From Candidatus Omnitrophota bacterium (GTDB lineage Bacteria; Omnitrophota; Gorgyraeia; Zapsychrales; Zapsychraceae), in assembly GCA_035292445.1 (NCBI GenBank), contig DATDQB010000003.1:9692-73691 (forward strand): a stretch of DNA of 64,000 nucleotides, given 5' to 3'. The notes under the pieces were generated by a model. That model did no database searches, was not told where the DNA came from, and was given only the letters and a program-made list of their open reading frames with translations. A program made the translations under genes and the position numbers. How positions within the stretch are numbered: position 1 is the stretch's first letter; every line of letters starts with the position of its first letter. This document shows, piece after piece, positions 28,293-45,233 of the stretch.

Positions 28293-29027
28293 TTATTTTC
28301 CAAGGCTTAAGCGTTCAGCCAGGATCTTAGGTAAATTGGCCTGATAAATCTTCTCCTGCGCCGTTGTAATGTCGTAACGAACCCTTCGAATCTCGACCAA
28401 AGATTTATCGGTATCATAGATCGCGCAACAGGCGGCGGGATTGCCATCGCGAGGCTGGCCAACGCTGCCAATATTGATGATGTATTTTCCTTTTTTTTTA
28501 AGCTTGACCTCTGGCTCGATAATGGCATCAACCGTATCAAATTGCGTAAAAATGATGGGGCGATGAGAATGGCCGATAAAACAGAGCTGTTGTTGAAAGC
28601 ACTTGAAATTCACATGAGCATCATCAATGTCTGAAATATATCCCCATTCTTTGGGGGCCACCGGGTTGGCATGAACGGCGAGGAAATATTTATTTTCAAA
28701 GACCATCTTCATCCCGGCCAGAAAATCAAAATCTTCCTTTTCCAATTGCCGCTTGGTCCATTCGATGGAAGCTTTGGCATGCGCATTAAAAAGAGCTGTG
28801 TCCGTCAAGCCGCAGGCCGCATGGTCATGATTACCGGCGAGGCACTGGCAATCATAACGTTTGATCAATTCTTTCAGCTCACGAACACACCGCACGGGAT
28901 CAGCGCCATAGCCGACAATATCGCCGAGAAACACATATTGATCCACGCGCTCCTTGTTGAACTCCTCGATGACGGCTGAAAATGCTTCCCAATTGGCGTG
29001 CACATCAGAAAATAATCCGAATTTCAT
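28293..29027 (-). CDS. calcineurin-like metallophosphoesterase
   Basis: D-x-H (FSDVHAN), GDIVGYGADP, GNHD and GHSH motifs. 244 aa. Confidence 0.8.
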   Translation of the reverse strand: MKFGLFSDVHANWEAFSAVIEEFNKERVDQYVFLGDIVGYGADPVRCVRELKELIKRYDCQCLAGNHDHAACGLTDTALFNAHAKASIEWTKRQLEKEDFDFLAGMKMVFENKYFLAVHANPVAPKEWGYISDIDDAHVNFKCFQQQLCFIGHSHRPIIFTQFDTVDAIIEPEVKLKKKGKYIINIGSVGQPRDGNPAACCAIYDTDKSLVEIRRVRYDITTAQEKIYQANLPKILAERLSLGK

Positions 29028-29029
29028 AT

Positions 29030-29404
29030 TTATTTCTTGCGCAAAGCCTTCTCAATAGCAGAGATCAAATCCTCTGCCCCGTAAGGTTTTGGTATATACC
29101 CGCTGGCTTTAATGCCCGGCTCGTTCATGGCCACCTCTTCCAGACCGGAGCCGGTGACAATGATTATAGGGATATCCTTCGTCTGCTTATTTTGATTAAG
29201 CTGTTTACAAACCTCATAGCCGTATTCTCCAGGTAAGATCAGATCCAACAGGATGACATCGGGGATAACCTCTTCGGCTTTTTTAATGCCGTCAAAACCA
29301 TTGCTGGCGATATGGACTTCGTAACCGGCTTGGGTCAACAAAGACTCGTTCAAACGCGTTGTCGAACGGTCATCATCTATCGATAAAACTTTTATTTTAG
29401 CCAT
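29030..29404 (-). CDS. single-domain response regulator (CheY-like receiver)
   Basis: VLSIDDD...DVILLDLILPGEYG...IIVTG...K. 124 aa. Confidence 0.85.
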   Translation of the reverse strand: MAKIKVLSIDDDRSTTRLNESLLTQAGYEVHIASNGFDGIKKAEEVIPDVILLDLILPGEYGYEVCKQLNQNKQTKDIPIIIVTGSGLEEVAMNEPGIKASGYIPKPYGAEDLISAIEKALRKK

Positions 29405-29424
29405 AGTTGCCCGGCCTCCTTTGA

Positions 29425-29919
29425 TTATTCACTTTGATTTTGGGCGGTGAATTTCAGCACATACCGTTGCAGGTCTTTATATAAGATCACTTCGTCTTGC
29501 CTGATCTCGACAACAATAAACCCTGAAATCTGGTCGCCTTTTTTAAGGAATTGGTCATTGATAATGGCTGTCGGCGTGTCCTTTTCCCACCCCAAGCCGG
29601 ATAACACCAAATCAGAGAACGATAGCGCGGTCAATTGAGGCTCTAACTTCTTGAAAGGATCTTTCACAAAAGCAATGTCCCTTTTTTCATTTCTTAATCT
29701 TATCTTATCGACAACATCAGCAAGATCAAACAGCTGGCCGTCCCCTGTTTGAGCCTCATTCGCCTTAGTTGCCGCAGCGCTCCTTGCCGTGCTTTCCTTG
29801 CGCTTACCGGCCTTGGCGTCTTGATCTTTATCCTTATCGGAGTTCGGCAGATATATGAGCACGGCGACGATCGCCATGCCGCCCATCACCATGCTGATCA
29901 TTTTTTCACGTTTAGTCAT
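29425..29919 (-). CDS. PilP-like pilus assembly protein
   Basis: 164 aa. N-terminal TM. C-terminal AIINDQFLKKGDQISGFIVVEIRQDEVIL matches the PilP/GspC beta-domain motif. Sits directly after PilO. Confidence 0.5.
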   Translation of the reverse strand: MTKREKMISMVMGGMAIVAVLIYLPNSDKDKDQDAKAGKRKESTARSAAATKANEAQTGDGQLFDLADVVDKIRLRNEKRDIAFVKDPFKKLEPQLTALSFSDLVLSGLGWEKDTPTAIINDQFLKKGDQISGFIVVEIRQDEVILYKDLQRYVLKFTAQNQSE

Positions 29920-30524
29920 CTTATTGTCTCTATTTCAGTTGTCAGCAGTTCATCGGGATCATGATAAGCAAAGACGTATACCGGCACTAAATGCACATCC
30001 AATAACGGATAAATAAGCGGGTCTTTATTGATCGTGACTTCATAAATGGCCATCATGGCGGAGTTGTTTTCTAGCCGGCGGATGAACTCCGCAAGCGCTT
30101 TATAATCCCCTTTGCAGCGTATCTCTATTCGCTGCAACTCATATTTCCCTTGGACCTCAGCTTCTAAAGGCCTGATCGAAAGCACCTCGATATTGTTGGC
30201 GCCGGCCAGGTCTTCGATCTCCAAGGAAATAAGCGGCAGGTTCTTTTCCTGGGAGACTTTTGTTTGTACGGCGCTGATCTCCTTCTTGAGGATATCCACC
30301 CCTTCGCTCATGGCGCGTTCTTTATCTTGGTACGTCTTTTTCAAGCGCTCATTACCGATCGAAGTCTGGGTCCTGGCGGCCGAGGTCAGGCGCATTTTCT
30401 GCCTGTACTGGTATATTTTCCTTATGCCGGGGAAGAAATCGAACAAAGTAAATAACACCAGGACGACCAGCATTCCCAAAAGCTCCATCCTGATAATGAA
30501 TTTAAGGTCAAACCCTTGTTTCAT
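29916..30524 (-). CDS. PilO-like type IV pilus assembly protein
   Basis: 202 aa. N-terminal TM, coiled coil, C-terminal ferredoxin-like part. Position PilM-PilN-PilO. Confidence 0.6.
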   Translation of the reverse strand: MKQGFDLKFIIRMELLGMLVVLVLFTLFDFFPGIRKIYQYRQKMRLTSAARTQTSIGNERLKKTYQDKERAMSEGVDILKKEISAVQTKVSQEKNLPLISLEIEDLAGANNIEVLSIRPLEAEVQGKYELQRIEIRCKGDYKALAEFIRRLENNSAMMAIYEVTINKDPLIYPLLDVHLVPVYVFAYHDPDELLTTEIETIR

Positions 30525-30545
30525 GGTTTCACGCGCCTTTATGCG

Positions 30546-31088
30546 TTAATTGAATTTACAGACGATCTTAAAGTCGACCATATCGCTTTTATTCTCGCTT
30601 TTTTCCACGGAAGACAGTTCAAGCCCTTTAAAATAAGGCATCTTTTTAAGTTCCAACATGTATTCGCTCACCAGCCGCGAATTAAAAGAGTTGCCGTTGA
30701 TGCCGCAGAGGCCTTCATCGCTATTGATGGAAATATCCTGGAGCCAGACCTTGTCCGCGCTCACATTCCCGATGGACAATAAGATGTCGTCGTAAGAATA
30801 GCGTTTCGAGAGCATCTCGATGAGCGGCCCTTCTGTCTTATAAAGCTGCTTCTGCTCGGCTTCCAACCTACTGATCGTGCCTTTGAGTTTGGCGAGGCTT
30901 GTGTCCTCTTTAACAGCCGCCGGCCCATCGGCCACCTTCTTCATTTGATTGATCATCACCGTTAAGCCGGCATGGATGAGGAGTGCCAAGACGCAAGTGG
31001 CAACAGCGGACGCCAAGACCGAAGCGCCTATTAATTTAAGCTGGTCTTCTTTTTGGATATCTTCCGGAATTAAATTAATTTGCCACAT
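30546..31088 (-). CDS. PilN-like type IV pilus assembly protein
   Basis: 180 aa. N-terminal INLIP motif (MWQINLIPEDI), single TM, periplasmic domain. Confidence 0.65.
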   Translation of the reverse strand: MWQINLIPEDIQKEDQLKLIGASVLASAVATCVLALLIHAGLTVMINQMKKVADGPAAVKEDTSLAKLKGTISRLEAEQKQLYKTEGPLIEMLSKRYSYDDILLSIGNVSADKVWLQDISINSDEGLCGINGNSFNSRLVSEYMLELKKMPYFKGLELSSVEKSENKSDMVDFKIVCKFN

Positions 31089-31108: not shown

Positions 31109-32278
31109 TTACCTTTTTACAGGCGCCTTTAACGCTGCGCCGATCGCGGCGCTCATCATCGAGGCATGTTCTTGAATAAAGGGCGTTTTTATTGTTTCCT
31201 GATCCACCACAAGTCCGGATAAGGGATTGGCTATCTCAAAAGTAGCGCCTAAATTTTCGGATAAATACCGGTCAAGCCCTTTAAGCTTGGCCCCGCCGCC
31301 GCATAAAATAATTTTTTCAATATTCTCCATCAGGAAATCCCGCTCGCAATAGGCAAAGCATTTGTGGATCTGTGCTATCAGATCATCCAACACCGGCTCT
31401 AAATGCACATTGATGTTCTGCTGGCTTTGCGAGGCCGGCTCTTGCGACGAATACAGCGAGCTGTTCCTTTTGGTCCTTTCAGCCTGCTCTCTCTCCATTT
31501 GAAGCCCTTTAGAAATGGCTTCGCTGAAGTGATCTCCCGCGAGCTCAAAATTCCTGACAAACTTTAACTGCGCCCCGCGGAATATGAGGACCGTTGTGGA
31601 ATGCGCCCCCATATCAATGACCGGCAAGATATGTTCCGGCCCCTTTGAATACAAGCCGACCAGTCGTTTAGCGACTGAAAAAAATGAAACATCCATGACA
31701 TTCGGCGCCAGGTTAACTTCCTTGAGGATCGAAAGGTATTTATAGATCATGGCCTTCTTGGCCGCCACGATAAAAAAGTCCATTTGATCGCTTTCAGCGG
31801 AAGAAGACTGGATCGGCTGGTAATCGACAATGGCCTCATCAATGGAAAAAGGGATATATTTTTCAGCTTGTTGCCTGATGGCGACGTTCACTTGTTCCTC
31901 GCTGATCTTGGGGATCCTGATCTGCCGGGAATACAAAGAGCTGTCGGAGATCGTAAGGTTGACCCTCTTGGCTTGAATATTATGCTCTTTCCACAATGCG
32001 CTCAGCGATTGGATGATGGCCGCGTCGTTGACTTCCCCTGAAGGGGCGGCCAGCAATTTGGAGATCTCTTTGTAGCCGAGCTTTATCAATTGCGCGCCCT
32101 GTTTTGTTTCTTGGACCTGGGCCACTTTGATCGAATGCGTCCCTATATCCAGGCCAACCCTTCCCAATCCTCCGAATAGAAAGTAATCCTCCAGGCCCTG
32201 CTCGATGTCGCTCAAATGGTCCAGCACCCTGAAAGGATTCAAATAATAAACCATTTTATTGATATCGAGGGATTTCAT
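31109..32278 (-). CDS. PilM-like actin-fold pilus assembly ATPase
   Basis: GLDIGTHSIKVAQV... matches the PilM N-terminus. The track ORF extends to 32350 using a TTG start that overlaps the upstream kinase. The first ATG (MKSLDINK, complement 32278) is preferred. Confidence 0.75.
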   Translation of the reverse strand: MKSLDINKMVYYLNPFRVLDHLSDIEQGLEDYFLFGGLGRVGLDIGTHSIKVAQVQETKQGAQLIKLGYKEISKLLAAPSGEVNDAAIIQSLSALWKEHNIQAKRVNLTISDSSLYSRQIRIPKISEEQVNVAIRQQAEKYIPFSIDEAIVDYQPIQSSSAESDQMDFFIVAAKKAMIYKYLSILKEVNLAPNVMDVSFFSVAKRLVGLYSKGPEHILPVIDMGAHSTTVLIFRGAQLKFVRNFELAGDHFSEAISKGLQMEREQAERTKRNSSLYSSQEPASQSQQNINVHLEPVLDDLIAQIHKCFAYCERDFLMENIEKIILCGGGAKLKGLDRYLSENLGATFEIANPLSGLVVDQETIKTPFIQEHASMMSAAIGAALKAPVKR

Positions 32279-32297
32279 CTTAAGCTTAAGTTTCCTG

Positions 32298-33998
32298 TCA
32301 TTTGGGCGGTTCCTGATAAATGGGCAATCTGATCGTAAACGTTGTCCCAACGCCCACCGCGCTATCTACCAGTATTTGGCCTTGATGTTTATCGACAATA
32401 TCCTTGCTGATCGCTAACCCCAGCCCTGTGCCTTTTCCTTCCGGTTTGGTCGTATATAATGGTTTAAATATCTCCACGAATTTATCTTTGGGAATGCCGT
32501 GGCCGGTATCCTTAAAGAGGACATCGACCCATTTCCCCTCACTGGCACAGCTGGTGATATCCAAACTGCCGCCTTTGACCTCCATCGCATCCATGGCATT
32601 GATGATCATGTTCAAATATACCTGCTGAAGCTGGCTGGCGTCCGCTTTTACTTTGGGCAAATCCTCTTTAAGGCGCTTGGAGATATGGACCTTTGTCTTG
32701 GACATATGGAATTGGGCGATAATAAGCGCCGCGTCAACGGATTTATTGACATTGGTCGGCAGCATTTCCACTTCTTTGCGCCGCGCGAAAGCCAATAAAT
32801 TCTTAACGATGTTCTGGCAATGCTTGACCTTATCTTTAACCAGCACCTCGTATTCCAGGCACTGTTTAACATCCGCTTCTTCCAGTTTGCCTTTTTGCAA
32901 CAGTTCTTCCGTCATCTCGTTGCACATCGAGATCCCGTGAAGTGGGTTATTGATCTCATGCACCATCCCGCTCGCTAAAAGCCCGAGCGCCGAAAGCTTG
33001 GCGGCTTCAACCAGCTGATTTTGTTGATCGAACAATTCTTTGTTTGCCTTCCTTAGATTATCGAACAGCTTGGCGTTTTCAATGGCGATAGAAGCTTGAT
33101 TGCAGATCGCCGTTAATAATTCAAGGTCCTCTTTGGCAAAGCCCAAGATCCGGTCCTTGGTGTCGACGTGAATAATGCCTAAGATCTGCCCCTTGGCTTT
33201 TAAGGGCACGCACAACGTTGAGCGGATGCCATGATGGATAACGCTTTGGGCCTCCATAAAACGGTTGTCCCCTTTGGCATCCGAGGTCAGGATCGACTCC
33301 CCTGTATTTAAAACATGGTTGGCGATCGTGCGTGAAAAAGCGACATCCGTTTTTTCGCCTAAGCCTTCCCTATTATGCACGTATTGCGGGAACATCTCTC
33401 CCGTCGTTTCATCGATCAAAAGGATAAAACTGCGGTCCGCCTTTAAAACATCCAAAATGATCTTTAAGATCCGGTTTAAGAGGTCTCCCAGTTTCAACAC
33501 AGAGCCGATCTCATGGCTGATGGTATAAAGTGTCTTTAATTTCTGATAAGCCTTTTGGGTGCTTTCTGCATCCGTTTTATTTAAAGATTCCTCCAGCGGC
33601 AAAACGGCCTCGGCGGGAATTTTCAGCTCAACCGTTAAGCCTTCGGCGGCCAGTTGGTCGACCTTTATGTTCTTATCTGTTTTTTCCTCTTCATCCCAGT
33701 TGATCGATGCGTCTTCGGAAGCAAATTCGAGTACGGTGTCGCCCACTTTGATCTTATCCCCGTAATGAAGCGCCTGCTGCTTGACTTCCTTATCGTTGAC
33801 CTTCGTCCCGTTCACGGAGCCGAGGTCTTCGAGGAAATAATGGTCGTTTTTAACGACGATCTTGGCGTGGTTACGGGAGACCCTTCGGTCCGATAAGACA
33901 ATTTGATTGGATTCGTTGCGGCCGATAGAAATGCCCTGGTCCTGGATGTTAAAAATTTGCCCTTTTTCTTTGCCTAATTTAATGATGAGCCTTGCCAT
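32298..33998 (-). CDS. cytoplasmic FHA-GAF sensor histidine kinase
   Basis: N-terminal FHA (GRNESNQIVLSDRRVSRNHAKI...GSVNGTKVN). GAF. HisKA H-box (MVHEINNPLHGI). HATPase_c G-boxes (DTGHGIP, GTGLGLAISKDIV). No TM. Confidence 0.85.
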   Translation of the reverse strand: MARLIIKLGKEKGQIFNIQDQGISIGRNESNQIVLSDRRVSRNHAKIVVKNDHYFLEDLGSVNGTKVNDKEVKQQALHYGDKIKVGDTVLEFASEDASINWDEEEKTDKNIKVDQLAAEGLTVELKIPAEAVLPLEESLNKTDAESTQKAYQKLKTLYTISHEIGSVLKLGDLLNRILKIILDVLKADRSFILLIDETTGEMFPQYVHNREGLGEKTDVAFSRTIANHVLNTGESILTSDAKGDNRFMEAQSVIHHGIRSTLCVPLKAKGQILGIIHVDTKDRILGFAKEDLELLTAICNQASIAIENAKLFDNLRKANKELFDQQNQLVEAAKLSALGLLASGMVHEINNPLHGISMCNEMTEELLQKGKLEEADVKQCLEYEVLVKDKVKHCQNIVKNLLAFARRKEVEMLPTNVNKSVDAALIIAQFHMSKTKVHISKRLKEDLPKVKADASQLQQVYLNMIINAMDAMEVKGGSLDITSCASEGKWVDVLFKDTGHGIPKDKFVEIFKPLYTTKPEGKGTGLGLAISKDIVDKHQGQILVDSAVGVGTTFTIRLPIYQEPPK

Positions 33999-34007
33999 TT
34001 TAAATGA

Positions 34008-35375
34008 CTACCATCCCCTGATCGTCTTCACGTGCTCATGAGCCTCATCAGCCATCGGCCCGCTTGTTTGGTATCTTAACAAATCTTGCCAAGCTTCCAA
34101 AGCTAAATTTTCTTGATTAAGCGCTTCATACGCCAACGCTAAATCCCTGTAATAGGGTGCGTAATCAGGCCTTAAGGCAATGGCTTCTTTGAACTCTCCC
34201 GCCGCTTCATCCATTCGCCCATTGCGGGAATACTGCAGGCCTTGCCCGTGATGCTCATCGGCTTTGGCCAGTTTTTGAAAATGCACCTCGGCCTCGTGAA
34301 GCACGTCTCCCTGGCTTCCGTCAGCCATTTCACCAGGCCCACTATTTTCCTCATCGATATAAGTCAGGCTTTCGGACCGATTTAAAAATGACATGATTTT
34401 TCCTTTTGACACATAAGCAACGGTGACCACGATTAGCAATAACACAAAGACGAAAAATTTTTTGGATTTCTTCTTTTGAGGCCTCGTGGAAATAAAATCG
34501 TCTTTAACGCTGGCCTTCGGCCCCTTGGAAGCACTGGCCTGCACGGCAGCCCGTTCAACAAAGTCGGGGCCTTTAAACTTCTTGATATCTTCAACAATCT
34601 CCTCGGCTTTCTGGTAGCGCTCCGCCACATTCTTGGCCATGGCTTTATGGACGATCCTTTCCAGCGCCTCGGGCACATCGGCTCGTAAGCTCCGTAAGGA
34701 AGGGATCGGCTCATTCTTATGTTTCAACAGAACGGCCTGGATCGACTCCCCTTGAAACGGGGGCCGGCCGATCAGCATCTCAAATAACGTAACCCCCAAG
34801 GAGTAGAGGTCCGTCCTGGTATCGATATCCGAATCGCTGACTTGTTCCGGCGACATATATTCGGCGGTGCCGACAGCCGCCCCCTGCATGGTCACCCGGG
34901 TGACATTGGGGATCTGGACAAGCCCAAAGTCCATCACTTTGACGCCCCCATCATCCTTGACAATAATATTATCCGGCTTGATGTCACGGTGGCTCATGCC
35001 TTCCTCCGCATGGGCAAACCCCAGCGCCCTGGCCACTTGAACAGTAACCCTTAAGGCCTCATCGATGGCCAGCGCACCCTTATTTTTTATCAATGTCTTT
35101 AGGTTTTCCCCTTCCACATATTCCATGGCAAAAAAATGCTGCCCCTGCGCCGAGCCGAACTCATACGCCTCTACAATATTCGGGTGTTTTAGCCGCACCA
35201 TCGCCGCTGCCTCGCGATTGAAGCGCTCGACCATAGAACGGTCCACCAAACTGGGGGGAAGAACTTTGATGGCCACTTCTTTCTGCGTGGCCGGATCAAG
35301 GCCTTTGTAGACGATCCCCATGCCCCCTTTGCCGATCTCTCTTAGAATCTTATATTTTCCGATCTGTTTTTCCAT
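34008..35375 (-). CDS. Hanks-type Ser/Thr protein kinase with TM segment and C-terminal TPR
   Basis: GKGGMGIVYKG (P-loop), AIK, HRDIKPDNII, DFGL, SPEQ. TM (FFVFVLLLIVVTVAYV). C-terminal TPR-like repeats. Confidence 0.9.
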   Translation of the reverse strand: MEKQIGKYKILREIGKGGMGIVYKGLDPATQKEVAIKVLPPSLVDRSMVERFNREAAAMVRLKHPNIVEAYEFGSAQGQHFFAMEYVEGENLKTLIKNKGALAIDEALRVTVQVARALGFAHAEEGMSHRDIKPDNIIVKDDGGVKVMDFGLVQIPNVTRVTMQGAAVGTAEYMSPEQVSDSDIDTRTDLYSLGVTLFEMLIGRPPFQGESIQAVLLKHKNEPIPSLRSLRADVPEALERIVHKAMAKNVAERYQKAEEIVEDIKKFKGPDFVERAAVQASASKGPKASVKDDFISTRPQKKKSKKFFVFVLLLIVVTVAYVSKGKIMSFLNRSESLTYIDEENSGPGEMADGSQGDVLHEAEVHFQKLAKADEHHGQGLQYSRNGRMDEAAGEFKEAIALRPDYAPYYRDLALAYEALNQENLALEAWQDLLRYQTSGPMADEAHEHVKTIRGW

Positions 35376-35381: not shown

Positions 35382-36500
35382 CTACCAATGCCCTTTCCAT
35401 GAATCGATCCGTACAGGCAAGGCGTTCGGCGAGAAATAAGGTGGGTCCAGCTCTCTGTCAAAATCGATCGTCAGGCCCATACCATTAACGTTATTTAGAA
35501 CGATGTTCCCGCCGGCAACCAGCGCCCCGTCATCTATATCAAAACTGAATATAACATTGCTGAGAGAAAAGTCCGTCCCCGCATAAATGAGGCCGTCAAT
35601 ATTAGCGTTCTGGATGGTATCGATAGTGACCGCTTGCGCCGCGATAATAGGCGGAATGGTTTCCCCCGCAACAACAGTGCCCGTAATGGTCAATAAAGAC
35701 ATGCCTGTCAGCGTTAGGTTGCCATTGACGATCAACGCCCCATTCAAGTTAAAACCGGCCAAAGTAATGGAACAATCCCCATTGATATAATAAACACCCG
35801 CTGGGGGAAAAGGGCTCACAAAAGAAGCACAATCCGCCAACGCTGTCCCGGCGACGCTCATGTAACCGGCTATGCCCAGATCCGGGATAGGGATCACTAG
35901 CGTAATGACATTGCCGGACACATCGTCATCGGATACATTCAAGTTGCTCAAACTGATGATACTCCCCCGGGCGATCACGTCCCCATCCGGGTCGCCGTTC
36001 GCCGACCCGATTACATTGATATTCCCGCCTGCCTGCATGGCCCCGCGCCAGGGGCTGGTGGTAACTTCGGCAACGATCGTCCTTTCGGCCATCCCCATGG
36101 TCCCAGTAGCGGTCAGCGTTCCAATGACGCTTGTCCCGGGCGCCTGATACGTGACAGAATGATCAATGTCCGCGTCAAGGTCGAGATCGCCGCTGCCAAT
36201 GGAGCCGATCGTCCCATCGCCGTCCTCGTCATTATTCCAAACGATCTCAGCCAACGCGCGCTCGATCCCGGCTTCGGCAAAATAAAATGCCTTGGCGACC
36301 TTTAACTGGTTGTCATTCATCCTGATCTCGCTACGGGCAATAAATAATAGGCCGGCACCCATCGTGAAGAAAAGCATCATGATCGACAACGCCAACACAT
36401 AAACAGCCCCTGCTTGTCTTTTCAGTTTCTTACAGAATCGGCATTCTTCCAAGAAATTCTTTGAAAATTTCAGCATAATATCTTTTAAATGGCCGCCCAT
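35382..36500 (-). CDS. PilX/GspK-like large minor pilin with C-terminal G-x-x-D-G repeat (beta-helix-like) domain
   Basis: RQAGAVYVLALSIMMLFFTMGAGLLFIARSEIRMNDNQLKVAKAFYFAEAGIERAL matches the PilX_N signature. C-terminus is rich in GD/NG repeats. 372 aa. Confidence 0.55.
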   Translation of the reverse strand: MGGHLKDIMLKFSKNFLEECRFCKKLKRQAGAVYVLALSIMMLFFTMGAGLLFIARSEIRMNDNQLKVAKAFYFAEAGIERALAEIVWNNDEDGDGTIGSIGSGDLDLDADIDHSVTYQAPGTSVIGTLTATGTMGMAERTIVAEVTTSPWRGAMQAGGNINVIGSANGDPDGDVIARGSIISLSNLNVSDDDVSGNVITLVIPIPDLGIAGYMSVAGTALADCASFVSPFPPAGVYYINGDCSITLAGFNLNGALIVNGNLTLTGMSLLTITGTVVAGETIPPIIAAQAVTIDTIQNANIDGLIYAGTDFSLSNVIFSFDIDDGALVAGGNIVLNNVNGMGLTIDFDRELDPPYFSPNALPVRIDSWKGHW

Positions 36501-37953: not shown

Positions 37954-38362
37954 CCGCTTCTATTTCTTTTTTCGTTTTGTGCTGCGGGATAAGAGCTGAC
38001 ATCAAGTTAATGGCTTTGATCATAATGGTGGTACTGCACGGTTTCGTTAAATAGTGGTCGGCCTCGAGCGAAAACCCCTTGTGCATATTGCCCAATTCCC
38101 CTTCACCGGAAACGATGATCACCGGCTGCCATTTTTCAGAAGGAGGGTTTTCTCTCAACTGCTTTAAGACCTCAAAACCGTGCATGCGGGGCATATTCAG
38201 GTCCAACAGGATAATATCCGGAGATTCGCTCTGGATCTTCTGCCAGGCCTCTTCGCCGTCTTTGGCCGGGACGACATCAAAGCCTTCTTCGCCGATCTTC
38301 TTGACCATGATCTTCAAAATATCCGAATCATCGTCCGCGATGAGAACTTTAATTTTCTCCAT
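37946..38362 (-). CDS. single-domain response regulator (CheY-like receiver)
   Basis: VLIADDD...DIILLDLNMPRMHG...IIVSG...K. 138 aa. Confidence 0.85.
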   Translation of the reverse strand: MEKIKVLIADDDSDILKIMVKKIGEEGFDVVPAKDGEEAWQKIQSESPDIILLDLNMPRMHGFEVLKQLRENPPSEKWQPVIIVSGEGELGNMHKGFSLEADHYLTKPCSTTIMIKAINLMSALIPQHKTKKEIEADE

Positions 38363-38422: not shown

Positions 38423-38869
38423 TTACCAATCAGCAAATGGGCTATCCCCCGAGGCAACGCACGGAGCGCCACAGCCTGCCATATCAAGGTTCACTCGAAC
38501 ATCCCCTGTACCAGCGATATAGACCCATCCGCCGGCGTTTGAAAAGGCGCCGACTGCGGCATTGCTTTCTGTTATCCCTTCTTCAGGAACGACCCTTAGA
38601 TAGATCTCGCCTGTTACAGGAGCCGCTACGGTCAAGGCGTTCAACGTAAGAGGCAATATGGCTTCTTGGACCCTGAATACTTCAATGGTAGAACGAAGGG
38701 TCTCCAAGTTGGTTTTTGTTGTCGAGACTCTGGCCGCATCGCCTTGACCGGCAAAACGGGGGATAATAATGGCTGCCAGAAGCCCTAAGATCACAATGAC
38801 CATGATGAGTTCTACCAGCGTAAAACCCTTGGCCGGACGCAACTGGTTACTTTTTAATAATGGTTGCAT
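38423..38869 (-). CDS. type IV major pilin (PilA/GspG-like) with C-terminal Cys pair
   Basis: AKGFTLVELIMVIVILGLLAAIIIPRF is a classic class III leader plus hydrophobic helix. C-terminal CGAPC disulfide loop. 148 aa. RBS AAAGGTGATAAC precedes the ATG. Confidence 0.8.
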   Translation of the reverse strand: MQPLLKSNQLRPAKGFTLVELIMVIVILGLLAAIIIPRFAGQGDAARVSTTKTNLETLRSTIEVFRVQEAILPLTLNALTVAAPVTGEIYLRVVPEEGITESNAAVGAFSNAGGWVYIAGTGDVRVNLDMAGCGAPCVASGDSPFADW

Positions 38870-38972: not shown

Positions 38973-40190
38973 TTACATATGAAGCCCTTCCATAATATCG
39001 GTTAAAGGTAAAAATATGGATAACGAAATGAAACCGACGATCACGGTCATAAAGACAATAAGGACAGGCTCAATGATTTTGGTAAAATTCTTGATAGCCG
39101 TATCCACTTCCCGGTCATAAAACTCGGAAACCTTCACCAAAATATTTTCTAGGGTCCCCGTTTCCTCGCCGACATGGATCATATTGACCACCATATCCGG
39201 GAAAACACCGGTTTCGGCCAAAGGCTGGGCAATGGATTTCCCTTCCCCAACACGGGCGGCCACGTCTTTTAAAGCTTTGATCACGACCTTATTGTCAAGC
39301 GTATCCGTAACGACCTCTAATGTCGTAAGAATCGGGATCCCCGCCGCCACCAAAACGGATAAAATTTGCGTAAATTGCGAAGCGGTCGTCTTCTTGATCA
39401 ATTCCCCGAACGCGGGCAAACTAAGGCATAATTTATCAAATTGATAACGCCCGTTTTCCGTATGAATGTAGCTTCGAAGGAAAATAAGGGTCATCCCTAT
39501 GGCGATAATGAAAAAATACCAATACTCCCGAAGCAACGCCCCCAACCCCAACAAGAACTCTGTTGAGGCAGGGATCGTGGCGCCGATATCTTCGAAGACC
39601 TGGGAAAACCGCGGCAACACAAAAGTCACCAGGAAAATAACGGCTCCCATACAGATGATCAGTAAAATGACCGGATAGGCTAGCGCGGATTTGATCCTCT
39701 CCCTGACCACAGACTGGGCCTCGTAAAAAATAGCCAATCTTCGTAACAGCTCGTCCAGCACTCCCCCCACTTCCCCGGCGTTGACCATTTGGATATATAA
39801 TTTAGAAAATACGTGCGGGTGCTCTTTCAAGGACTCCGAGAATGAGCGCCCCTCTTCAACTTTATGATGGATTTCAACCAGCGCTTTTTTCAGCGTTTCG
39901 TTGGTGGTTTGGTTAATGATGATGCGCAGGCTCTTAAGAAGGGGCAATCCGGCATTGAGCATGGTATAAAGCTGCCAGCTTAGGATAGAGATGTCCGTAA
40001 ATTTTACCTTTTTCTTGAAAGAAAAAAATCCGGGGGCCATCACGCCCGAGATTTTCTTTTCCGAGAACTCGATGACAAAATACCCCCTCGCATCAAGCTT
40101 TTTGCGCAGGTCTTTGCTGTCTTCGGCGATCAGCTCGCCTTCAATGACTTTCCCATATTTATCCCGGACCCTGTATAAGTACCGTTGCAT
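38973..40190 (-). CDS. PilC/GspF inner-membrane platform protein
   Basis: 405 aa. Duplicated GspF domain with three TM helices. Conserved NAGEVGG-type region. Confidence 0.9.
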   Translation of the reverse strand: MQRYLYRVRDKYGKVIEGELIAEDSKDLRKKLDARGYFVIEFSEKKISGVMAPGFFSFKKKVKFTDISILSWQLYTMLNAGLPLLKSLRIIINQTTNETLKKALVEIHHKVEEGRSFSESLKEHPHVFSKLYIQMVNAGEVGGVLDELLRRLAIFYEAQSVVRERIKSALAYPVILLIICMGAVIFLVTFVLPRFSQVFEDIGATIPASTEFLLGLGALLREYWYFFIIAIGMTLIFLRSYIHTENGRYQFDKLCLSLPAFGELIKKTTASQFTQILSVLVAAGIPILTTLEVVTDTLDNKVVIKALKDVAARVGEGKSIAQPLAETGVFPDMVVNMIHVGEETGTLENILVKVSEFYDREVDTAIKNFTKIIEPVLIVFMTVIVGFISLSIFLPLTDIMEGLHM

Positions 40191-40201: not shown

Positions 40202-41917
40202 CTATTCAGCTTCGATAAAGGTCACTTTGTTGACCTCTTCAAGCGTTGTGAGACCTTGTAAAGCCTTTTCCATGCCATCTTCCCACAATAATTTCATGCC
40301 GGCCTTTCGGGCGGCTTCCTGGATCTCATCGCTGGATTTCCCGGCCTGAATAACGCTGCGCAGCTCCTTGTTCAAGACCATCAGTTCAAAAATACCGATG
40401 CGGCCGTAATAACCCGTTTTACCGCAGGCATCGCAGCCCTTTCCCCGGTAAAAGGTATATGTCTTTGTAGCGTCCTCTAATCTTGCGCGTTTCAGTTCCT
40501 CCGGCGTTGGTTGGTAACTCTCCTTGCATTTGGGGCAGATCATACGGACTAACCGCTGGGCCAATATGCCGCAGACCGAGGAAATGACAAGATAAAGAGG
40601 GATCCCCATATCCACCAAACGGACAATGGAGCTGGCGGCATCGTTGGTGTGAAGGGTGCTGAAGACCAGATGCCCCGTCAATGCGGCACGGACGGCGATA
40701 TCCGCTGTCTCGGTATCCCGCATCTCCCCCACCATGATCACGTCCGGGTCCTGGCGCAAAATGGACCTTAATCCTTTGGCAAAGGTGACCCCCGCTTTGA
40801 CATTGACAGCGATCTGGTTCACTCCTTTGATCTCGTATTCCACCGGCTCTTCGATCGTAATGATGTTCTTATCCGCCGTATTGATGGTTTGCAGGGCCAA
40901 ATAAAGGGTGGTCGATTTCCCGCTTCCCGTCGGGCCGGTCACCAGGACAATGCCAAAGGGACGTTCGATCAATTCCCTGAATTTCGTGTATACATCATCG
41001 CCAAAACCGGAATTTTTAAGGTCTTTAAGAATGACGCTCGGGTCCAGCAGGCGCATGACCACCGTTTCGCCGTAAGTTGTCGGGACCGTGGAAACGCGCA
41101 CATCCACTTCTTTTTCCTCCACGTTCATCTTAAACCGGCCGTCCTGGGGGGTCCGCTTGATCGAGATGTCGATGCCCGCCATGATCTTGATCCTCGAGAT
41201 AATGATCTCCTGAAGATGTTTAGGCGGCGTCATCGCCTCCCGCAAACCGCCATCGACGCGGTAACGGACCCGCAAAACCTCTTCTTCCGGCTCGATATGG
41301 ATATCGCTGGCCCGGGCTTTCACCGCCTCGGTGATCATCGTATTGACCATTTTGATGATGGGCGCCTGGTCCGTTTCGATGATCTGTTCTTTGGGCTCTA
41401 CCTTTTTAACTTTTGTCTGGCGTTTCGACTCGATCCGGTCAGCCTCTTGGGCCATGCTGGTAACCGCTTGATGCAGGCGTTCTTTGCCATGATAAAATTT
41501 GTCGATCGCCCTGAGGATCTCCTCTTTTCGGCATAAAACAACCTCGATCTTTGATTTAGCCATCCCCTCGATATCATCGATGGCGAAAACATCAAAAGGA
41601 TCGGCCATCGCGACCTGTAAGGTATCCCCTTCTTTGGAAAGAGGCATCACCATATATTGCCGGCAGTGGTTTTCCGGGATCAATTTGATCACGCCGGGAT
41701 CAAGGATAAGGCTGGATAATTCCCTGGCGACCGGAACATGAAGGCATTCGCTCATAAAATGGATCAATTTTTCCTCGGTAATAAAACCCATATCCACCAG
41801 GACCTGCCTCAGGACCATTTTTGTTTCTTGATGTTTCTTGAGGGCGACGTCAAACTGCTCCTGGGTGATGAGCCCCTCTTCCACTAATCGTTCGCCTAAT
41901 CGGATTCTTTTGTACAT
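40202..41917 (-). CDS. PilB/GspE type IV pilus assembly ATPase
   Basis: N-terminal GspE_N domain. Walker A VTGPTGSGKSTTLY. Asp box, Walker B, His box. Tetracysteine CPKC...CDAC motif. 571 aa. Confidence 0.9.
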   Translation of the reverse strand: MYKRIRLGERLVEEGLITQEQFDVALKKHQETKMVLRQVLVDMGFITEEKLIHFMSECLHVPVARELSSLILDPGVIKLIPENHCRQYMVMPLSKEGDTLQVAMADPFDVFAIDDIEGMAKSKIEVVLCRKEEILRAIDKFYHGKERLHQAVTSMAQEADRIESKRQTKVKKVEPKEQIIETDQAPIIKMVNTMITEAVKARASDIHIEPEEEVLRVRYRVDGGLREAMTPPKHLQEIIISRIKIMAGIDISIKRTPQDGRFKMNVEEKEVDVRVSTVPTTYGETVVMRLLDPSVILKDLKNSGFGDDVYTKFRELIERPFGIVLVTGPTGSGKSTTLYLALQTINTADKNIITIEEPVEYEIKGVNQIAVNVKAGVTFAKGLRSILRQDPDVIMVGEMRDTETADIAVRAALTGHLVFSTLHTNDAASSIVRLVDMGIPLYLVISSVCGILAQRLVRMICPKCKESYQPTPEELKRARLEDATKTYTFYRGKGCDACGKTGYYGRIGIFELMVLNKELRSVIQAGKSSDEIQEAARKAGMKLLWEDGMEKALQGLTTLEEVNKVTFIEAE

Positions 41918-41940: not shown

Positions 41941-42309
41941 TCATTGAAGGGTTGTTTCAATGCATTTGATCAATAATTTTGTCTTGAGCGGCTTGACTAA
42001 ATAATACTCCGCCCCCAGATGGATGCCTTTTTGAATATCCTCTTCCAAACCCATCCCCGTCAACATAACAACGGGGATCGTTTGCGTTTCCTTGTTTTTC
42101 TTCATCTCACCCAACACCTCATAACCGCTTATTTTGGGCAGCATGATGTCCAGGATCACTAGATCAGGCTTTTTCTGCTGCATAAGCCTTAAGCCTTCTT
42201 CGCCATCAAGGGCCGTGGCCACCGAGTAACCGAGCTTGCCCAGTTCGCTCTGCAGTATTTTGTTCAAGTCCTTATCGTCATCAATGATCAGAATTTCTTT
42301 TCTTTTCAT
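41941..42309 (-). CDS. single-domain response regulator (CheY-like receiver)
   Basis: ILIIDDD...DLVILDIMLPKISG...VMLTG...K. 122 aa. Confidence 0.85.
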   Translation of the reverse strand: MKRKEILIIDDDKDLNKILQSELGKLGYSVATALDGEEGLRLMQQKKPDLVILDIMLPKISGYEVLGEMKKNKETQTIPVVMLTGMGLEEDIQKGIHLGAEYYLVKPLKTKLLIKCIETTLQ

Positions 42310-42460: not shown

Positions 42461-42838
42461 CTAGGCAATGGTCTTTATCTTATCCATTAACTCCTTGAAA
42501 TTAAATGGTTTACCGATAGCCGGGTAAAAGCGATCCCCAACCTTGATCTTGGTGGCCGTTTCCTCTTCATCTTCAACAACGATGCCAGAAAGAAAAATTA
42601 CCGGGATATCCCTGGTGGATTGGTACTCCTGGAGCGTGCGCACGCAATCGGCCCCGTCAATATCGCCCAAAACAATGTCCATTAAAATGACATCGGGCAT
42701 GAAATCTTTGGCCTTTTTAAGCACCTCTTGCCCTTCGCTAAGGGTGCTGACATTAAAGCCTTCCGATTTTAACTTATGGGACAACAATTCAGAAATGTCT
42801 TTGTTATCGTCAACGATCAGGATTTTTCTTACGCCCAT
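42461..42838 (-). CDS. single-domain response regulator (CheY-like receiver)
   Basis: ILIVDDN...DVILMDIVLGDIDG...IFLSG...K. 125 aa. Confidence 0.85.
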   Translation of the reverse strand: MGVRKILIVDDNKDISELLSHKLKSEGFNVSTLSEGQEVLKKAKDFMPDVILMDIVLGDIDGADCVRTLQEYQSTRDIPVIFLSGIVVEDEEETATKIKVGDRFYPAIGKPFNFKELMDKIKTIA

Positions 42839-42888: not shown

Positions 42889-43491
42889 TTAAAAGGAAAA
42901 AGCCCTCTCAAAAGACAGCCTATAAATATTTTCGGCCGTGGTCTTAACCCCAGTGATGAACTTGAAAAAGCTCCACTTGTCAAAGACCAAATCAAAGAGC
43001 AAGACCGTCAGGCAGATCACCGCCACGAAAACGAGGCTCATCCAAAAAAAGTATGTCGGCTTGATCGGCGTCTTCTCCTCTTCCTGCATTTCCTGGGCGG
43101 TGAGCAGGATATGCATGGCAAAGGCAAAACCGACGAAGAACATGTAATAAGGGCTCACGTTGCTGGCGCCCAATAACGTTTTCGTCACATAGAACAAAAG
43201 CAGGACGATCGTCAGGTAGAACGGGACCAGCCGGGAAATGAGCCTGTCCGCCGGCTGCAGGAAAGACATCAGGCCTTGCATCATGCGCTGGCCGAAATCA
43301 TAGACGCCCCAGAACTGGTACAAAAACAAGAACGTCACCAGAAAGCCGAAGATCCCCCACCGGAAGAACTCCGCATAGCTGGCGGGATAGGTGGTCAAGT
43401 GGCTTTCAAAAGCGACGAAGGTGGCGATCACGATGGGGAGCATCAGGACCGCCAGGAAAAACTTAAGCATCGTTAATATGAAATCGCCCAT
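42889..43491 (-). CDS. hypothetical polytopic membrane protein
   Basis: 200 aa, about 5 TM helices. No motif recognised. Confidence 0.5.
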   Translation of the reverse strand: MGDFILTMLKFFLAVLMLPIVIATFVAFESHLTTYPASYAEFFRWGIFGFLVTFLFLYQFWGVYDFGQRMMQGLMSFLQPADRLISRLVPFYLTIVLLLFYVTKTLLGASNVSPYYMFFVGFAFAMHILLTAQEMQEEEKTPIKPTYFFWMSLVFVAVICLTVLLFDLVFDKWSFFKFITGVKTTAENIYRLSFERAFSF

Positions 43492-43502
43492 AATAATCTC
43501 CT

Positions 43503-44786
43503 TTATGAAAACGATTGTTTAGAAATCTTTGTTAACCCATCCATGTACGGGCGCAACGCCTCAGGGATAGCAACCTCCCCTTCCTTGGTCTGGTTGTTTT
43601 CCAAAAGAGCGGCCACGGTGCGCGGAAGAGCGACGCCGGAGCCGTTTAACGTGTGGACGAACCCCGTTCCCTTAGTTGCCTTGCCCTTAAAACGGATGTT
43701 CGCCCGGCGGGCCTGGAAATTCTCAAAATTGGAACAGCTGGAGGCCTCCAGCCATTTGTCAAGCCCGGCGGCGTAAACTTCGATGTCATAGCATTTGGCC
43801 GCCGCGAAGCTCAGATCCCCGCTCGCCAACTGCAACACGCGGTAGGGGATGTTCAGGAGTTGAAAGATCTTTTCAGCGTTTTTGACGAGGGCTTCCAGCT
43901 CCTCGTAAGAATTTTCGGGTGTTGTAAATTTGACCATCTCCACTTTATCGAACTGGTGAACGCGGATAAGGCCCTTGGTGTCCTTGCCGTAGGAGCCTGC
44001 TTCCCGGCGGAAACACGGCGTGTACGCCGTATAATAAATGGGCAGGTCTTCCTCTTTGAGGATCTCATCGCGGTGGATGTTGGTGACCGGCACCTCGGCG
44101 GTGGGGATCAAGAACAGATCCTCCTCCTTCAGCCTGTACATGTCCGCTTCCATCTTGGGCAGCTGCCCCGTCCCGGTCATGGCGTCGCGGTTGACCAGTA
44201 CCGGCGGGGAGATCTCCTTATAACCGTGCTCTTTGGTGTGCACATCCAGCATGAAATTAATGAGCGCCCGCTCCAGCCGGGCGCCGAGGCCTTTGAACAA
44301 AATAAAATTGCTGCCCGAGATCTTGGTGCAACGCTTAAAGTCCACGATGTCCAATTTTTCGACCAGGTCCAGATGCGTCAGCGGCTTAAAATTGAATTTT
44401 GGCTTCTCGCCCCAGCTGCGCACGGTCGTATTTTTTTCAGCACCGCCGGAGGCCACGCTCTCATGCGGCAGGTTGGGGATGCCGATCAACAGCTCATCCA
44501 GTTCGTGCCGCAGGGATTTGGCTTTGGGCTCAAGTTCGTCTATTTGCGCGGCGATGGCCTTCATGGCAATGATCTTTTCCTTGGCGTCCTTTTTCGCTTT
44601 AAGGAGTGCTGCGATATCGTCGTTGGCCGCGTTCTGCCGGGCTTTTAAGTCATCGCATTTTTGCTGAATGGCCCGGCGGGACTGGTCTTTCTCATAAATC
44701 AAGTCCAGATCCGCCTTGAAATTTTTCTTGAGCAATCCCTCACGGACGGCTTTGCGGTTATCCCGGATCAGTTGAATGTCGAACAT
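43503..44786 (-). CDS. serS: seryl-tRNA synthetase
   Basis: 427 aa. N-terminal coiled-coil arm. Class II motifs, motif 2 FRREAGS-like (CFRREAGSYGKDTKGLIRVHQFDKVE) and motif 3 (GSGVALPRTVAALLE). Confidence 0.9.
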   Translation of the reverse strand: MFDIQLIRDNRKAVREGLLKKNFKADLDLIYEKDQSRRAIQQKCDDLKARQNAANDDIAALLKAKKDAKEKIIAMKAIAAQIDELEPKAKSLRHELDELLIGIPNLPHESVASGGAEKNTTVRSWGEKPKFNFKPLTHLDLVEKLDIVDFKRCTKISGSNFILFKGLGARLERALINFMLDVHTKEHGYKEISPPVLVNRDAMTGTGQLPKMEADMYRLKEEDLFLIPTAEVPVTNIHRDEILKEEDLPIYYTAYTPCFRREAGSYGKDTKGLIRVHQFDKVEMVKFTTPENSYEELEALVKNAEKIFQLLNIPYRVLQLASGDLSFAAAKCYDIEVYAAGLDKWLEASSCSNFENFQARRANIRFKGKATKGTGFVHTLNGSGVALPRTVAALLENNQTKEGEVAIPEALRPYMDGLTKISKQSFS

Positions 44787-44807
44787 GGGGTATTTTTTAG
44801 CGCGGTT

Positions 44808-45233
44808 TTAATCGGCCCTGAAATGCTCCTGCAGGACCTGCTGGATCTGTGTAGCCAGCACCTTAGGGTTTATGGGCTTGCACATAAAATTCTCGGCATC
44901 CAACGAAAAACATTCCACCAAATTGGACGGCGAATCAACGCCGGTCAGAAAAATGACGGGGATATCTTTGGTCGCCTCGTTCTCTTTGATCTGCCGGCAC
45001 ATGGCGACCCCGTCCATTATCGGCATGTTGCAGTCGGAAAGGATCAGATCCGGCTTGTGGGAGAGCGCTTTGATATAGCCTTCGGCCCCGTTCTCTGCCG
45101 TCATCACCCGGCAGCCCAGGTCCTTCAAGGCGTGCACGATGATCTTGCGGTCGACTTCGTTGTCATCGACCACCAAAATGATGCGGTCCTTGAAGGTTGG
45201 TGCGTCTTTTTTCCCGAACAAATTATTTAACAT
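44808..45233 (-). CDS. single-domain response regulator (CheY-like receiver)
   Basis: ILVVDDN...DLILSDCNMPIMDG...IFLTG...K. 141 aa. Confidence 0.85.
   Translation of the reverse strand: MLNNLFGKKDAPTFKDRIILVVDDNEVDRKIIVHALKDLGCRVMTAENGAEGYIKALSHKPDLILSDCNMPIMDGVAMCRQIKENEATKDIPVIFLTGVDSPSNLVECFSLDAENFMCKPINPKVLATQIQQVLQEHFRAD

Follow-up and report, generated by a model that had tools for sequence, protein, structure and literature searches.

Control of type IV pili (T4P) is known mainly from Proteobacteria, Myxococcus and cyanobacteria, and the described systems are PilSR, Chp, the cyclic di-GMP (c-di-GMP) controls of the FimX and MshE kind, and Pix/Tax. The pil genes of Myxococcus xanthus (pilB-T-C-S-R-A ... 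pilMNOPQ) form one large cluster with two-component genes among the structural genes, while in Chp/Pil-Chp (PilG, PilH, ChpA) and the cyanobacterial Pix/Tax systems single-domain CheY-like receivers set extension and retraction of type IVa pili (T4aP) by protein contact. Beyond pili, the H1 type VI secretion system (H1-T6SS) of Pseudomonas aeruginosa relies on PpkA, Fha1 and PppA to gate assembly of a nanomachine post-translationally, combining a membrane-bound Hanks kinase whose sensor domain is periplasmic with an FHA reader and a phosphatase, and the Esp system of Myxococcus joins the FHA-histidine kinase EspA with the Ser/Thr kinases PktA5 and PktB8. The only type IV filament with documented Hanks-kinase and FHA regulators in the searchable literature is the Sulfolobus archaellum, with ArnA (FHA), ArnB (vWA), the kinases ArnC and ArnD, and PP2A (PMC5300886, PMC5007285). 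The subject of this analysis is a 64-kb stretch of DNA (the window) from a metagenome-assembled genome (MAG) of a Candidatus Omnitrophota bacterium, in which positions 28293-45233 hold a type IV filament assembly operon whose structural genes are interleaved with a Hanks-type Ser/Thr kinase (STK), an FHA-bearing histidine kinase (HK) and stand-alone receivers (REC).

Epibiotic, parasitic or predatory lifestyles have been attributed to Omnitrophota. T4aP clusters were found in nearly all of them by a TXSScan-based survey (PMC10066038). The reading judged probable here, if only modestly so, is that the block serves a type IVa-like pilus as its main assembly operon and includes a fixed signalling cassette, which would make it a new regulatory variant of T4aP.

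Architecture and Conservation of the Locus

Genes were called from a listing of open reading frames (ORFs) and from Pfam and NCBIfam. This reproduced the gene order of the initial annotation and confirmed each of its gene calls, with the minus strand used throughout; a type IV filament operon that combines the E-F-G-H-I-J-K order of a type II secretion system (T2SS) with a T4aP-like PilMNOP content was correctly recognized there. The opening of its gene list with serS needs amendment, as the outermost gene of the region is a receiver, REC0 (44808-45233). From the receiver REC2 to a terminal metallophosphoesterase, 17 genes follow one another on one strand with gaps of -8 to +103 nt, except for one overlap of 53 nt that arises from an upstream TTG start of PilM, whose true start probably lies downstream of it. 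The gap between REC2 and PilB is 23 nt, and those flanking STK and HK are 6-10 nt. All ORFs of the locus are intact and their catalytic motifs conserved; HK is identical to a protein of the Omnitrophota MAG, and the proteins around it bear accessions HLF17517-HLF17573 and locus tags VI749_.

The strongest evidence on the cassette comes from related loci. Neighborhoods were gathered by exact-protein look-ups, from one GTDB genome match (L009, an Omnitrophota MAG) and by a metagenome scan with the FHA-GAF half of HK, and were compared with the window by tblastn; a scan of genome contigs with the full HK alignment picked generic histidine kinase motifs, and L009 was the sole true orthologue among the matches listed. 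The core order is shared by ten further loci, being complete in seven (L001, L006, L009, L088, L090, L091, L168) and present as fragments in three (L089, L092, L094). Its first part runs from a single or tandem receiver through PilB, PilC, the pilin, the minor pilins and a protein of 340-390 aa (145 aa in L088) to STK with its TPR repeats, and its second part from HK through PilM, PilN, PilO and a protein of ~160 aa to one or two receivers and the metallophosphoesterase. The adjacency of the protein at the K position, STK, HK and PilM is found in all seven complete loci and in the three fragments as well. Identity to the window is 59-64% for PilB and 44-58% for HK, so that these loci represent well-diverged lineages. 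Given that the core is collinear in all ten at such HK identities, the kinases are an integral and conserved part of the locus, and the placement of signalling genes between structural genes, to which the initial annotation had drawn attention, is a genuine fixed feature.

The Signalling Cassette

STK (34008-35375; Pkinase 7e-53, TPR_11/TPR_2) has a cytoplasmic kinase domain, one transmembrane (TM) segment at residues 307-325 and ~130 C-terminal residues with TPR repeats, which are predicted to be extracytoplasmic because they follow a single TM helix. The Hanks motifs are all there (GKGGMG, K37, HRDIKPDN, DFG, SPE), and in nine orthologues the threonines of the activation loop (T159, T162, T170) never vary, the outward TPR segment being conserved as well. 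STK adjoins HK in every related locus. HK itself (32298-33998; FHA 1.3e-19, GAF 1.6e-18, HisKA 7.6e-08, HATPase_c 3.7e-24) is soluble and has no TM segment; invariant in 21 orthologues are the FHA residues G26, R27, S41, R42, H44 and N63, the H-box histidine H347, and the N, G1 and G2 boxes. The HK region matches the EspA model of NCBIfam at 1.2e-44, far under that model's cut-off. Some 100 full-length relatives of HK share 41-70% identity with it. Relatives at or below 38% identity over the FHA-GAF part, or at 42-45% over the full length (L002-L005), never adjoin pilus genes. The PqqD, ScmC, NTP_transf_5 and Wzz/GNVR genes near such non-pilus relatives, of which the first three also form a trio in L006, hint at the setting from which the kinase was recruited.

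The count of five stand-alone receivers was accurate. Each has the acidic pocket, acceptor Asp, Thr/Ser and Lys of CheY (equivalents of DD, D57, S87 and K109), and the receivers scanned in the ten loci are without DNA-binding or enzymatic output, their only extras being a second REC or a coiled coil. REC2 (41941-42309; Response_reg 7.4e-29) opens the tightly packed operon and is separated from REC1 (42461-42838; Response_reg 1.2e-20; 49% identity to its orthologue in L088) by a terminator-like hairpin at 42433-42408, a consensus match only, with a 10-bp stem and then the T-run TTTTTATT. In L001, L006, L090, L091 and L168 PilB is preceded by a tandem REC-REC gene (245-291 aa), whose split counterpart is REC1 plus REC2. 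REC4 (29030-29404; Response_reg 1.5e-22) is the best conserved receiver, at 46-60% identity and in the same position in L001, L006, L009, L088, L090 and L168.

REC3 (37946-38362; Response_reg 7.4e-28) is lineage-specific, its position being occupied only in the window and in L009, and it overlaps the next minor-prepilin gene by 8 nt (37946-37953) in a different frame. In L009 a single ORF (L009:5861-6649) comprises a whole receiver, an in-frame prepilin cleavage motif (MSKK...EKN↓AFTLIEL...) and a GspH-like minor pilin. Unless a frameshift in the MAG has created this fusion, the receiver would be a cytoplasmic prepilin leader that is cut off by the prepilin peptidase. In the same locus an extra membrane kinase, HAMP-HisKA-HATPase, separates the pilin from the minor pilins (L009:4047-5864), and a REC-HisKA-HATPase hybrid replaces its metallophosphoesterase (L009:14687-15973).

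At the other end of the conserved unit stands a calcineurin-like metallophosphoesterase (28293-29027; Metallophos_2 9e-19), which has 47-53% identity by tblastn to its counterparts in L001, L006, L088 and L090 and is matched in position by a 244-aa Metallophos gene in L168. It takes the place of a PP2C phosphatase, of which there is none in the cassette. The initial annotation had called the arrangement atypical of PilSR or Chp control, and this is borne out: the window ORFs scanned include no sigma54/HTH response regulator, CheA, CheW or MCP, and all five receivers are single-domain proteins.

The Assembly Machine

The extension ATPase, of PilB type (40202-41917; T2SSE 5.4e-140, MshEN 2.8e-20), finds its best full-length matches in the PDB in Thermus PilF (540 bits), Geobacter PilB (488 bits) and Myxococcus PilB (478 bits). 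Against NCBIfam it narrowly misses two cut-offs, scoring 632.8 bits with the PilB model TIGR02538 (cut-off 675.65) and 625.6 bits with GspE (cut-off 630.25). It has a Walker A motif, GPTGSGKST, and a CPKC..CDAC motif. Residues 1-145 form an MshEN domain; the N-domain of MshE (5htl) matches residues 4-142 at 4e-21, and the c-di-GMP-binding motif NF053729 scores 57.2 bits over residues 6-57 against a cut-off of 38. The ATPase is thereby predicted to carry a c-di-GMP-binding domain at its N-terminus. The platform protein PilC (38973-40190; T2SSF 4.5e-62 in two stretches) scores 374 bits with GspF (cut-off 424), 366 with Myxococcus PilC and 363 with Thermus PilC, none of which reaches the equivalog cut-offs, themselves lineage-specific; its best match in the PDB is Myxococcus PilC (300 bits).

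PilM (31109-32350; PilM_2 6.5e-52), the actin-like cytoplasmic component, exceeds the cut-off of its own model (TIGR01175, 183 bits against 133) and is closest in the PDB to PilM of Myxococcus (146 bits) and of Thermus (129 bits); its orthologues are 376-380 aa long. PilN (30546-31088; PilN 1.9e-11) has a single TM segment, its N-terminal INL[IL]P motif is kept in eight loci, and in all loci PilM and PilN are separate ORFs. The PilO/GspM-like protein (29916-30524; PilO 2.2e-05, T2SSM_b 6e-05, GspM_XpsM 2.6e-05) likewise has one TM segment and matches PilO and GspM models alike, each weakly.

The identity of the 164-aa protein that follows (29425-29919) comes from fold comparison only. A word-indexed search for homologues found only the protein itself, a profile search found eight, and a sequence profile against the PDB returned nothing meaningful. 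It is built of a TM anchor without a lipobox, a basic linker and a C-terminal beta domain, and has an invariant DPF motif; its orthologues show weak, sub-threshold matches to T2SSB (6/6) and T2SSC (1/6), and no PDZ domain. The AF2 model has a pLDDT of ~90 over residues 100-160, the C-terminal domain, and Foldseek against the PDB places only PilP (3jc8_P, 2y4y, 2ivw), GspB (4wfw) and GspC-HR/LspC structures (3oss_C and 6hcg_e for GspC-HR, with LspC) at the top, with target-normalised TM-scores of 0.56-0.73 and an rmsd of 2.3-3.4 Å. In all characterised systems known to us the HR fold contacts the N0 domain of the secretin. Since the 164-aa protein has the PilP/GspC-HR fold, a secretin partner is to be expected, encoded elsewhere.

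The major prepilin (38423-38869; N_methyl 4.1e-07) has a 15-aa leader, a class III signal (KG↓FTLVEL) and a mature part of 133 aa, and the motif [G/A]FT[L/M]xE is kept in eight orthologues. The GspG model matches its N-terminal half only, with 56.7 bits against a cut-off of 88.85, and its profile against the PDB recovers just the N-terminal helix shared by Geobacter PilA, PulG and other pilins, so that GspG and PilA cannot be separated on this basis. The C-terminal Cys loop that had been cited as a T4aP trait of this pilin loses its force, as the CGAPC pair is confined to the window and L088, its closest relative, and six other orthologues are without it.

Three minor prepilins follow, at the GspH/FimU position (37465-37953; AG↓FTLLEL motif; weak ComGD, GspG and XpsH matches), the GspI/PilV position (37100-37468; N_methyl 2e-06; weak N-terminal matches to ComGE, PilV and GspI) and the GspJ/PilW position (36511-37098; N_methyl 0.0011; Verru_Chthon cassette protein C 4e-05), the last with orthologues in seven loci. 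The FimT-, PilV- and PilW-like labels given to them at first, and with them the assignment to H, I and J, have no basis beyond position and size. The N-methyl prepilin motif is found in 17/18 minor-pilin orthologues and a GspH match in 2/18, and Pfam assigns almost none to an H, I or J family; the orthologue at the GspH position in L009 matches GspH at 2.4e-4.

The 372-aa protein at the end of the series (35382-36500) was initially labelled PilX/GspK-like, which can be made more precise as ComZ/PilX_N-like. No Pfam family matches the window protein itself; orthologues and fold provide the assignment. Among the orthologues PilX_N is matched in 3/6 (best 4.1e-06) and DUF7305 in 3/6, and the AF2 model (pLDDT 91.1) has a long hydrophobic N-terminal helix (4-88) and a beta-solenoid body. 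The best Foldseek match is ComZ of Thermus (6qvi, E 8.7e-07), with ice-binding beta-solenoids of the FfIBP type following at 4e-04, although TM-scores are low (0.2-0.33). ComZ, the tip pilin of the Thermus T4aP, was itself reported to have this pair of similarities, and comZ forms a five-ORF competence locus with pilA1-pilA4 (PMC6561018). The family of the 372-aa protein comprises 356 representative clusters at E<=1e-3, and a distant member with 25% identity lies in a minor-pilin block that has no kinases (L169).

Components Missing from the Locus

The absence of a secretin, a prepilin peptidase and PilT from the block, noted at the outset, extends to the window, its flanks and the related loci. 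None of the scanned window ORFs of at least 120 aa matches a secretin (PF00263), a prepilin peptidase (Peptidase_A24) or a PilT-type ATPase; none is present in ~7 kb to the left or ~8.5 kb to the right of the window, or in the flanks of related loci (L001, L006, L009 and L168 among them), and tblastn detects no second PilB-like ATPase in the window. Discovery of these parts just beyond the window in a canonical arrangement had been named beforehand as a result that would overturn the initial annotation, and neither edge holds them. That annotation had also proposed a self-contained circuit, which is doubtful, given that the PilP/GspC-HR fold predicts a secretin elsewhere and that the prepilins need a peptidase from outside the locus.

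Several candidates for the missing parts were considered and dismissed. A T2SSE gene to the left of the window is TadA/FlaI-like and is not PilT. It encodes a 453-aa ATPase nearest to FlaI/TadA (window 1-940, minus strand, running off the start; L007:8077-9438), is followed by a PAS histidine kinase, and may belong to a second, Tad-like filament system. Two Pfam-less proteins of 525 aa and 541 aa were rejected as divergent secretins, one being a polytopic GT-C-like membrane protein and the other Pfam-less with a composition that by eye is propeller-like. Likewise, the 200-aa polytopic protein encoded beside serS (42889-43491; ~5 TM segments) can be dismissed as a cryptic prepilin peptidase, having neither a GxGD motif nor a Pfam or NCBIfam match and being absent from the related loci.

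A Proposed Mechanism and the Alternatives

On the view that a type IVa-like pilus has its main assembly operon here, the structural set would consist of the PilB-type ATPase, the PilC platform, the major pilin, three priming minor pilins, a beta-solenoid tip pilin and a PilM-PilN-PilO-PilP alignment complex, with the secretin, the prepilin peptidase and any retraction ATPase encoded elsewhere in the genome. The affinity to T4aP is seen in the full-length architecture of PilB, the split PilM and PilN, the PilP fold without a PDZ domain and the ComZ-like tip pilin. For the cassette, we infer a post-translational relay from phospho-threonine to His-Asp phosphotransfer that would act on the motor. 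With its TPR domain facing outward, STK would respond to a cue from the envelope or from contact by autophosphorylating its invariant activation-loop threonines; HK would then dock by its FHA domain on the phospho-threonine of STK, its GAF domain adding a second, small-molecule input. HK would in turn phosphorylate the output-less receivers at the head of the operon (REC1/REC2, or the tandem REC-REC protein elsewhere) and at its tail (REC4). Because they have no DNA-binding or enzymatic domain, the receivers would act by binding the motor, be it PilB, PilM or PilC, and so switch extension on or off as receivers of the PilG/PilH or PixG type do. The terminal metallophosphoesterase may reset the system, and c-di-GMP could act in parallel through the MshEN domain of PilB. 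Gene content, intact domains, folds, conserved order and taxon are established, whereas the course of the signal, the receiver targets, the part played by the phosphoesterase and the choice between a pilus and a secretion pseudopilus belong to the proposal. The fused receiver and prepilin of L009 counts in favor of the pilus reading, in that it appears to tie a receiver physically to the site of pilin processing. A bolder version, in which extension fires only upon an envelope or host-contact cue at the TPR sensor, by way of a T6SS-like Thr-phosphorylation checkpoint that feeds motor-bound receivers, and in which the receiver-leader of L009 is freed by the peptidase, is tentative and on the whole doubtful.

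Several observations weigh against this interpretation of the block. The gene order, E-F-G-H-I-J-K-(L-M-C-like), is that of a T2SS, and the core of the ATPase gives a tie, with GspE/EpsE at 422-426 bits (C-terminal 390 residues only) and PilF fragments over the same part at 418-422 bits. PilB, PilC and the pilin fall just under the curated cut-offs for both T4aP and T2SS. The machine may be incomplete, as a secretin and a peptidase were not found in the window, the flanks or the related loci, and there is no PilT nearby. Phosphotransfer partners are not predictable from sequence here, and the metallophosphoesterase belongs to a family with many substrates, its best match in the PDB (3rqz, 4.9e-40) being itself uncharacterised. 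Finally, the gene order is not absolute: the pilin gene of L089 (L089:8118-9977) runs straight into STK, with four minor and tip pilin genes missing between them, so the minor-pilin block can be absent or moved.

The foremost alternative is that the machine is a functional T2SS, whose short GspG-like pseudopilus would drive bulky surface or secreted proteins out via a secretin located elsewhere in the genome, with the kinases gating secretion and not pilus extension. Besides the order of E to K and the L-like (PilM plus PilN), M-like and C/B-like genes behind it, this accommodates the equal scores of the ATPase core with GspE and PilF fragments, the fact that GspG is the best NCBIfam match of the pilin, the matches of PilO to T2SSM_b and GspM and those of the 164-aa protein to T2SSB/T2SSC and to GspB and GspC-HR folds besides PilP, as well as the lack of a nearby PilT. 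Very large proteins of the secreted type are close by as well: in L001 the pilus operon is immediately followed by a giant ORF exceeding 3700 aa (L001:16372-21680), and the window encodes RHS proteins and a 2024-aa protein that has an S8 subtilase domain at its C-terminus (10881-16955). Giant Omnitrophota proteins flanked by T2SS/T4P genes are described in a 2026 preprint, with which the L001 ORF and the window subtilase are in line. Yet the operon has no GspD secretin and no gspD adjacent to it, although gspC-D usually head T2SS operons; there is no GspC PDZ domain; PilM and PilN are separate where T2SS has the single protein GspL; and GspE, GspF and GspG all stay under their curated cut-offs. 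Further, the full-length ATPase with its MshEN c-di-GMP domain best fits PilF/PilB, the inserted domain of the tip protein is ComZ-like and not GspK-like, and the TXSScan-based survey mentioned above classed the Omnitrophota clusters as T4aP. A secretion pseudopilus is judged unlikely. As for the suggestion in the initial annotation of a novel type IV filament variant, the machine itself does not support it, since the counterparts of PilB, PilC, PilM, PilN and the PilP fold are ordinary components of T4aP, above all those of Thermus and Myxococcus, whereas the regulatory insert is apparently new.

It is more improbable that the signalling genes are passengers, merely co-transcribed with the pilus genes and regulating, for example, envelope or exopolysaccharide functions. 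HK orthologues of other bacteria with 42-45% identity do lie beside PqqD-ScmC-NTP_transf_5 and Wzz/GNVR genes (L002, L004, L005; the context in L003 is unrelated), L006 has the PqqD-ScmC-NTP_transf_5 trio 3-5 kb downstream of its cluster (L006:18629-20947), and output-less receivers could serve any pathway. However, wherever a locus with an HK identity of at least 44% was recovered, STK and HK are placed alike between the tip pilin and PilM, despite sequence divergence of 40-55%, they are flanked by the 6-10 nt gaps given above, and in L009 the REC-prepilin fusion and the extra HAMP kinase in the pilin block point to repeated recruitment of signalling into the operon. That the locus is a degenerate or incomplete pilus remnant without current function is the least credible of these alternatives and very improbable. 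Such a view would draw on the lack of a secretin, PilD and PilT in the 64 kb, the flanks and any related locus; against it stand the intact ORFs with conserved catalytic motifs and orthologues that are clearly constrained across ten loci, and pilQ, pilD and pilT are commonly scattered elsewhere in the genomes of T4aP-bearing bacteria. A type IVa-like pilus operon with an inserted signalling cassette is the interpretation judged most probable.

Surroundings of the Locus

Toward the right end of the region, serS (43503-44786), the 200-aa membrane protein and REC0, which the initial annotation had run together with the operon, are not conserved neighbors. Like the small GIY-YIG gene at 27944-28195, they are absent from all related loci and consequently lie outside the conserved unit. 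With serS, three tRNA-Ser genes (GGA, CGA and UGA; 4236-4322, 24680-24767, 27799-27885) are found within 40 kb, two of the three at the Rfam gathering threshold. A 253-aa ORF (24827-25588) whose sole recognizable domain is the SAM-like N-terminal one of phage integrases adjoins tRNA-Ser(CGA), and the GIY-YIG protein adjoins tRNA-Ser(UGA); both could be remnants of integrated elements directly downstream of the pilus operon. On the other side, a low-GC stretch (50001-54000; 0.33-0.42 against ~0.50) holds two IS200-like Y1 transposase genes (51058-51561, 51687-52295), and beside it are two RHS-repeat/Ig-domain proteins (53730-57395, 57340-59535) and a small match-less protein (53183-53749).

PMT_2/GT-C-like membrane glycosyltransferases and long TPR proteins occur at 4594-6243, 6918-8792, 8794-10338, 18635-20212 and 20218-24572, and a PEP-CTERM/LTD protein at 49234-49884; this run, together with the PEP-CTERM/LTD protein, suggests a heavy investment in envelope glycosylation around the pilus locus. 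Other signalling genes lie nearby, namely a tandem REC-REC protein (17724-18512), a membrane GAF-HD-GYP protein (25624-27105) and a single receiver (63264-63623), and beyond the right edge (L008:10354-15925) there are two 7TM histidine kinases, an HD-GYP protein and a receiver. A GAF-HD-GYP protein is near the locus in the window and an HD_5 protein near it in L006; the other loci have neither.

Significance

T4aP loci in Omnitrophota were already known, as were pilus clusters with embedded systems of the PilSR type; what is apparently new is the regulatory insert. No description was found of an STK, an FHA-HK and output-less receivers fixed in a bacterial T4P operon, in a literature that lacked most subscription journals. 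The arrangement is conserved and specific to one candidate phylum, and it places a Hanks kinase, an FHA-HK and receivers within the assembly operon itself, which would provide a natural case of cross-talk from Ser/Thr to His-Asp phosphorylation with a defined output machine. Further, it is a candidate for a switch that senses contact, in ultra-small bacteria inferred to depend for their way of life on attachment to other cells. The small soluble parts, that is, the FHA-HK, the five receivers and the N-domain of PilB, can be tested in vitro without culture. The occurrence of T2SS-like order and T4aP-like parts together in a PVC-related phylum bears on the origin of T2SS from T4aP, and release of the receiver-leader in L009, if true, would be a new coupling of pilin processing to signalling.

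Comparison with Known Systems

The T4aP/competence pilus of Thermus thermophilus (PilF, PilC, PilA1-A4 with ComZ, PilMNOWQ) resembles the locus in its ATPase, PilF being the best PDB match including the MshEN-type N-domain, in PilM, and in a series of three small T2SS-like minor pilins that ends with a large tip pilin bearing a beta-solenoid, in Thermus ComZ. The 372-aa protein is shorter than Thermus ComZ, the structure of which has ~500-520 residues. Thermus, however, distributes its genes over several loci where here there is one operon, its pilQ lies with pilMNOW whereas no secretin follows here, and its loci are without STK, FHA-HK or receivers. Myxococcus supplies the best or near-best structural matches for PilB, PilC, PilM and PilP (3jc8), but in its pil cluster the sensor kinase PilS and the sigma54 enhancer-binding regulator PilR act on pilA transcription, whereas the present locus has the pair of STK and FHA-HK and no DNA-binding regulator, pilT or pilQ. 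With the canonical T2SS (gspC-D-E-F-G-H-I-J-K-L-M) the locus shares the E-F-G-H-I-J-K order with L, M and C/B-like genes after it, a GspG-like pilin N-terminus, a GspM-like PilO and an HR-domain protein; it departs from it in having no gspD or PDZ-bearing gspC, PilM plus PilN in place of GspL, a beta-solenoid tip and not the alpha-domain of GspK, and GspE, GspF and GspG scores below cut-off.

The regulatory precedents are equally partial. In H1-T6SS, too, a Hanks kinase, an FHA reader and a phosphatase (here a candidate one) are encoded inside the cluster of an envelope-spanning machine, a functional analogy only: the machine is a different one, its FHA scaffold is not fused to a histidine kinase, its phosphatase is of the PP2C type, and it has no His-Asp branch. 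Esp likewise pairs an FHA-bearing histidine kinase with Hanks kinases, although EspA is a hybrid kinase with PAS and receiver domains that governs developmental timing and lies outside pilus genes. The regulators of the Sulfolobus archaellum are archaeal, act mainly on archaellin expression, include no histidine kinase or receivers and are not interleaved with assembly genes. Chp and Pix/Tax have in common with the locus their single-domain CheY-like receivers; here, by contrast, there is no CheA, CheW, MCP or PATAN, and the kinase is a classical HisKA dimer with FHA and GAF inputs. The threonine-phosphorylation system of T6SS, Esp, PilG/PilH and Arn are thus best regarded as functional analogies, each of which resembles a part of the cassette, and the locus itself appears to belong to none of them.

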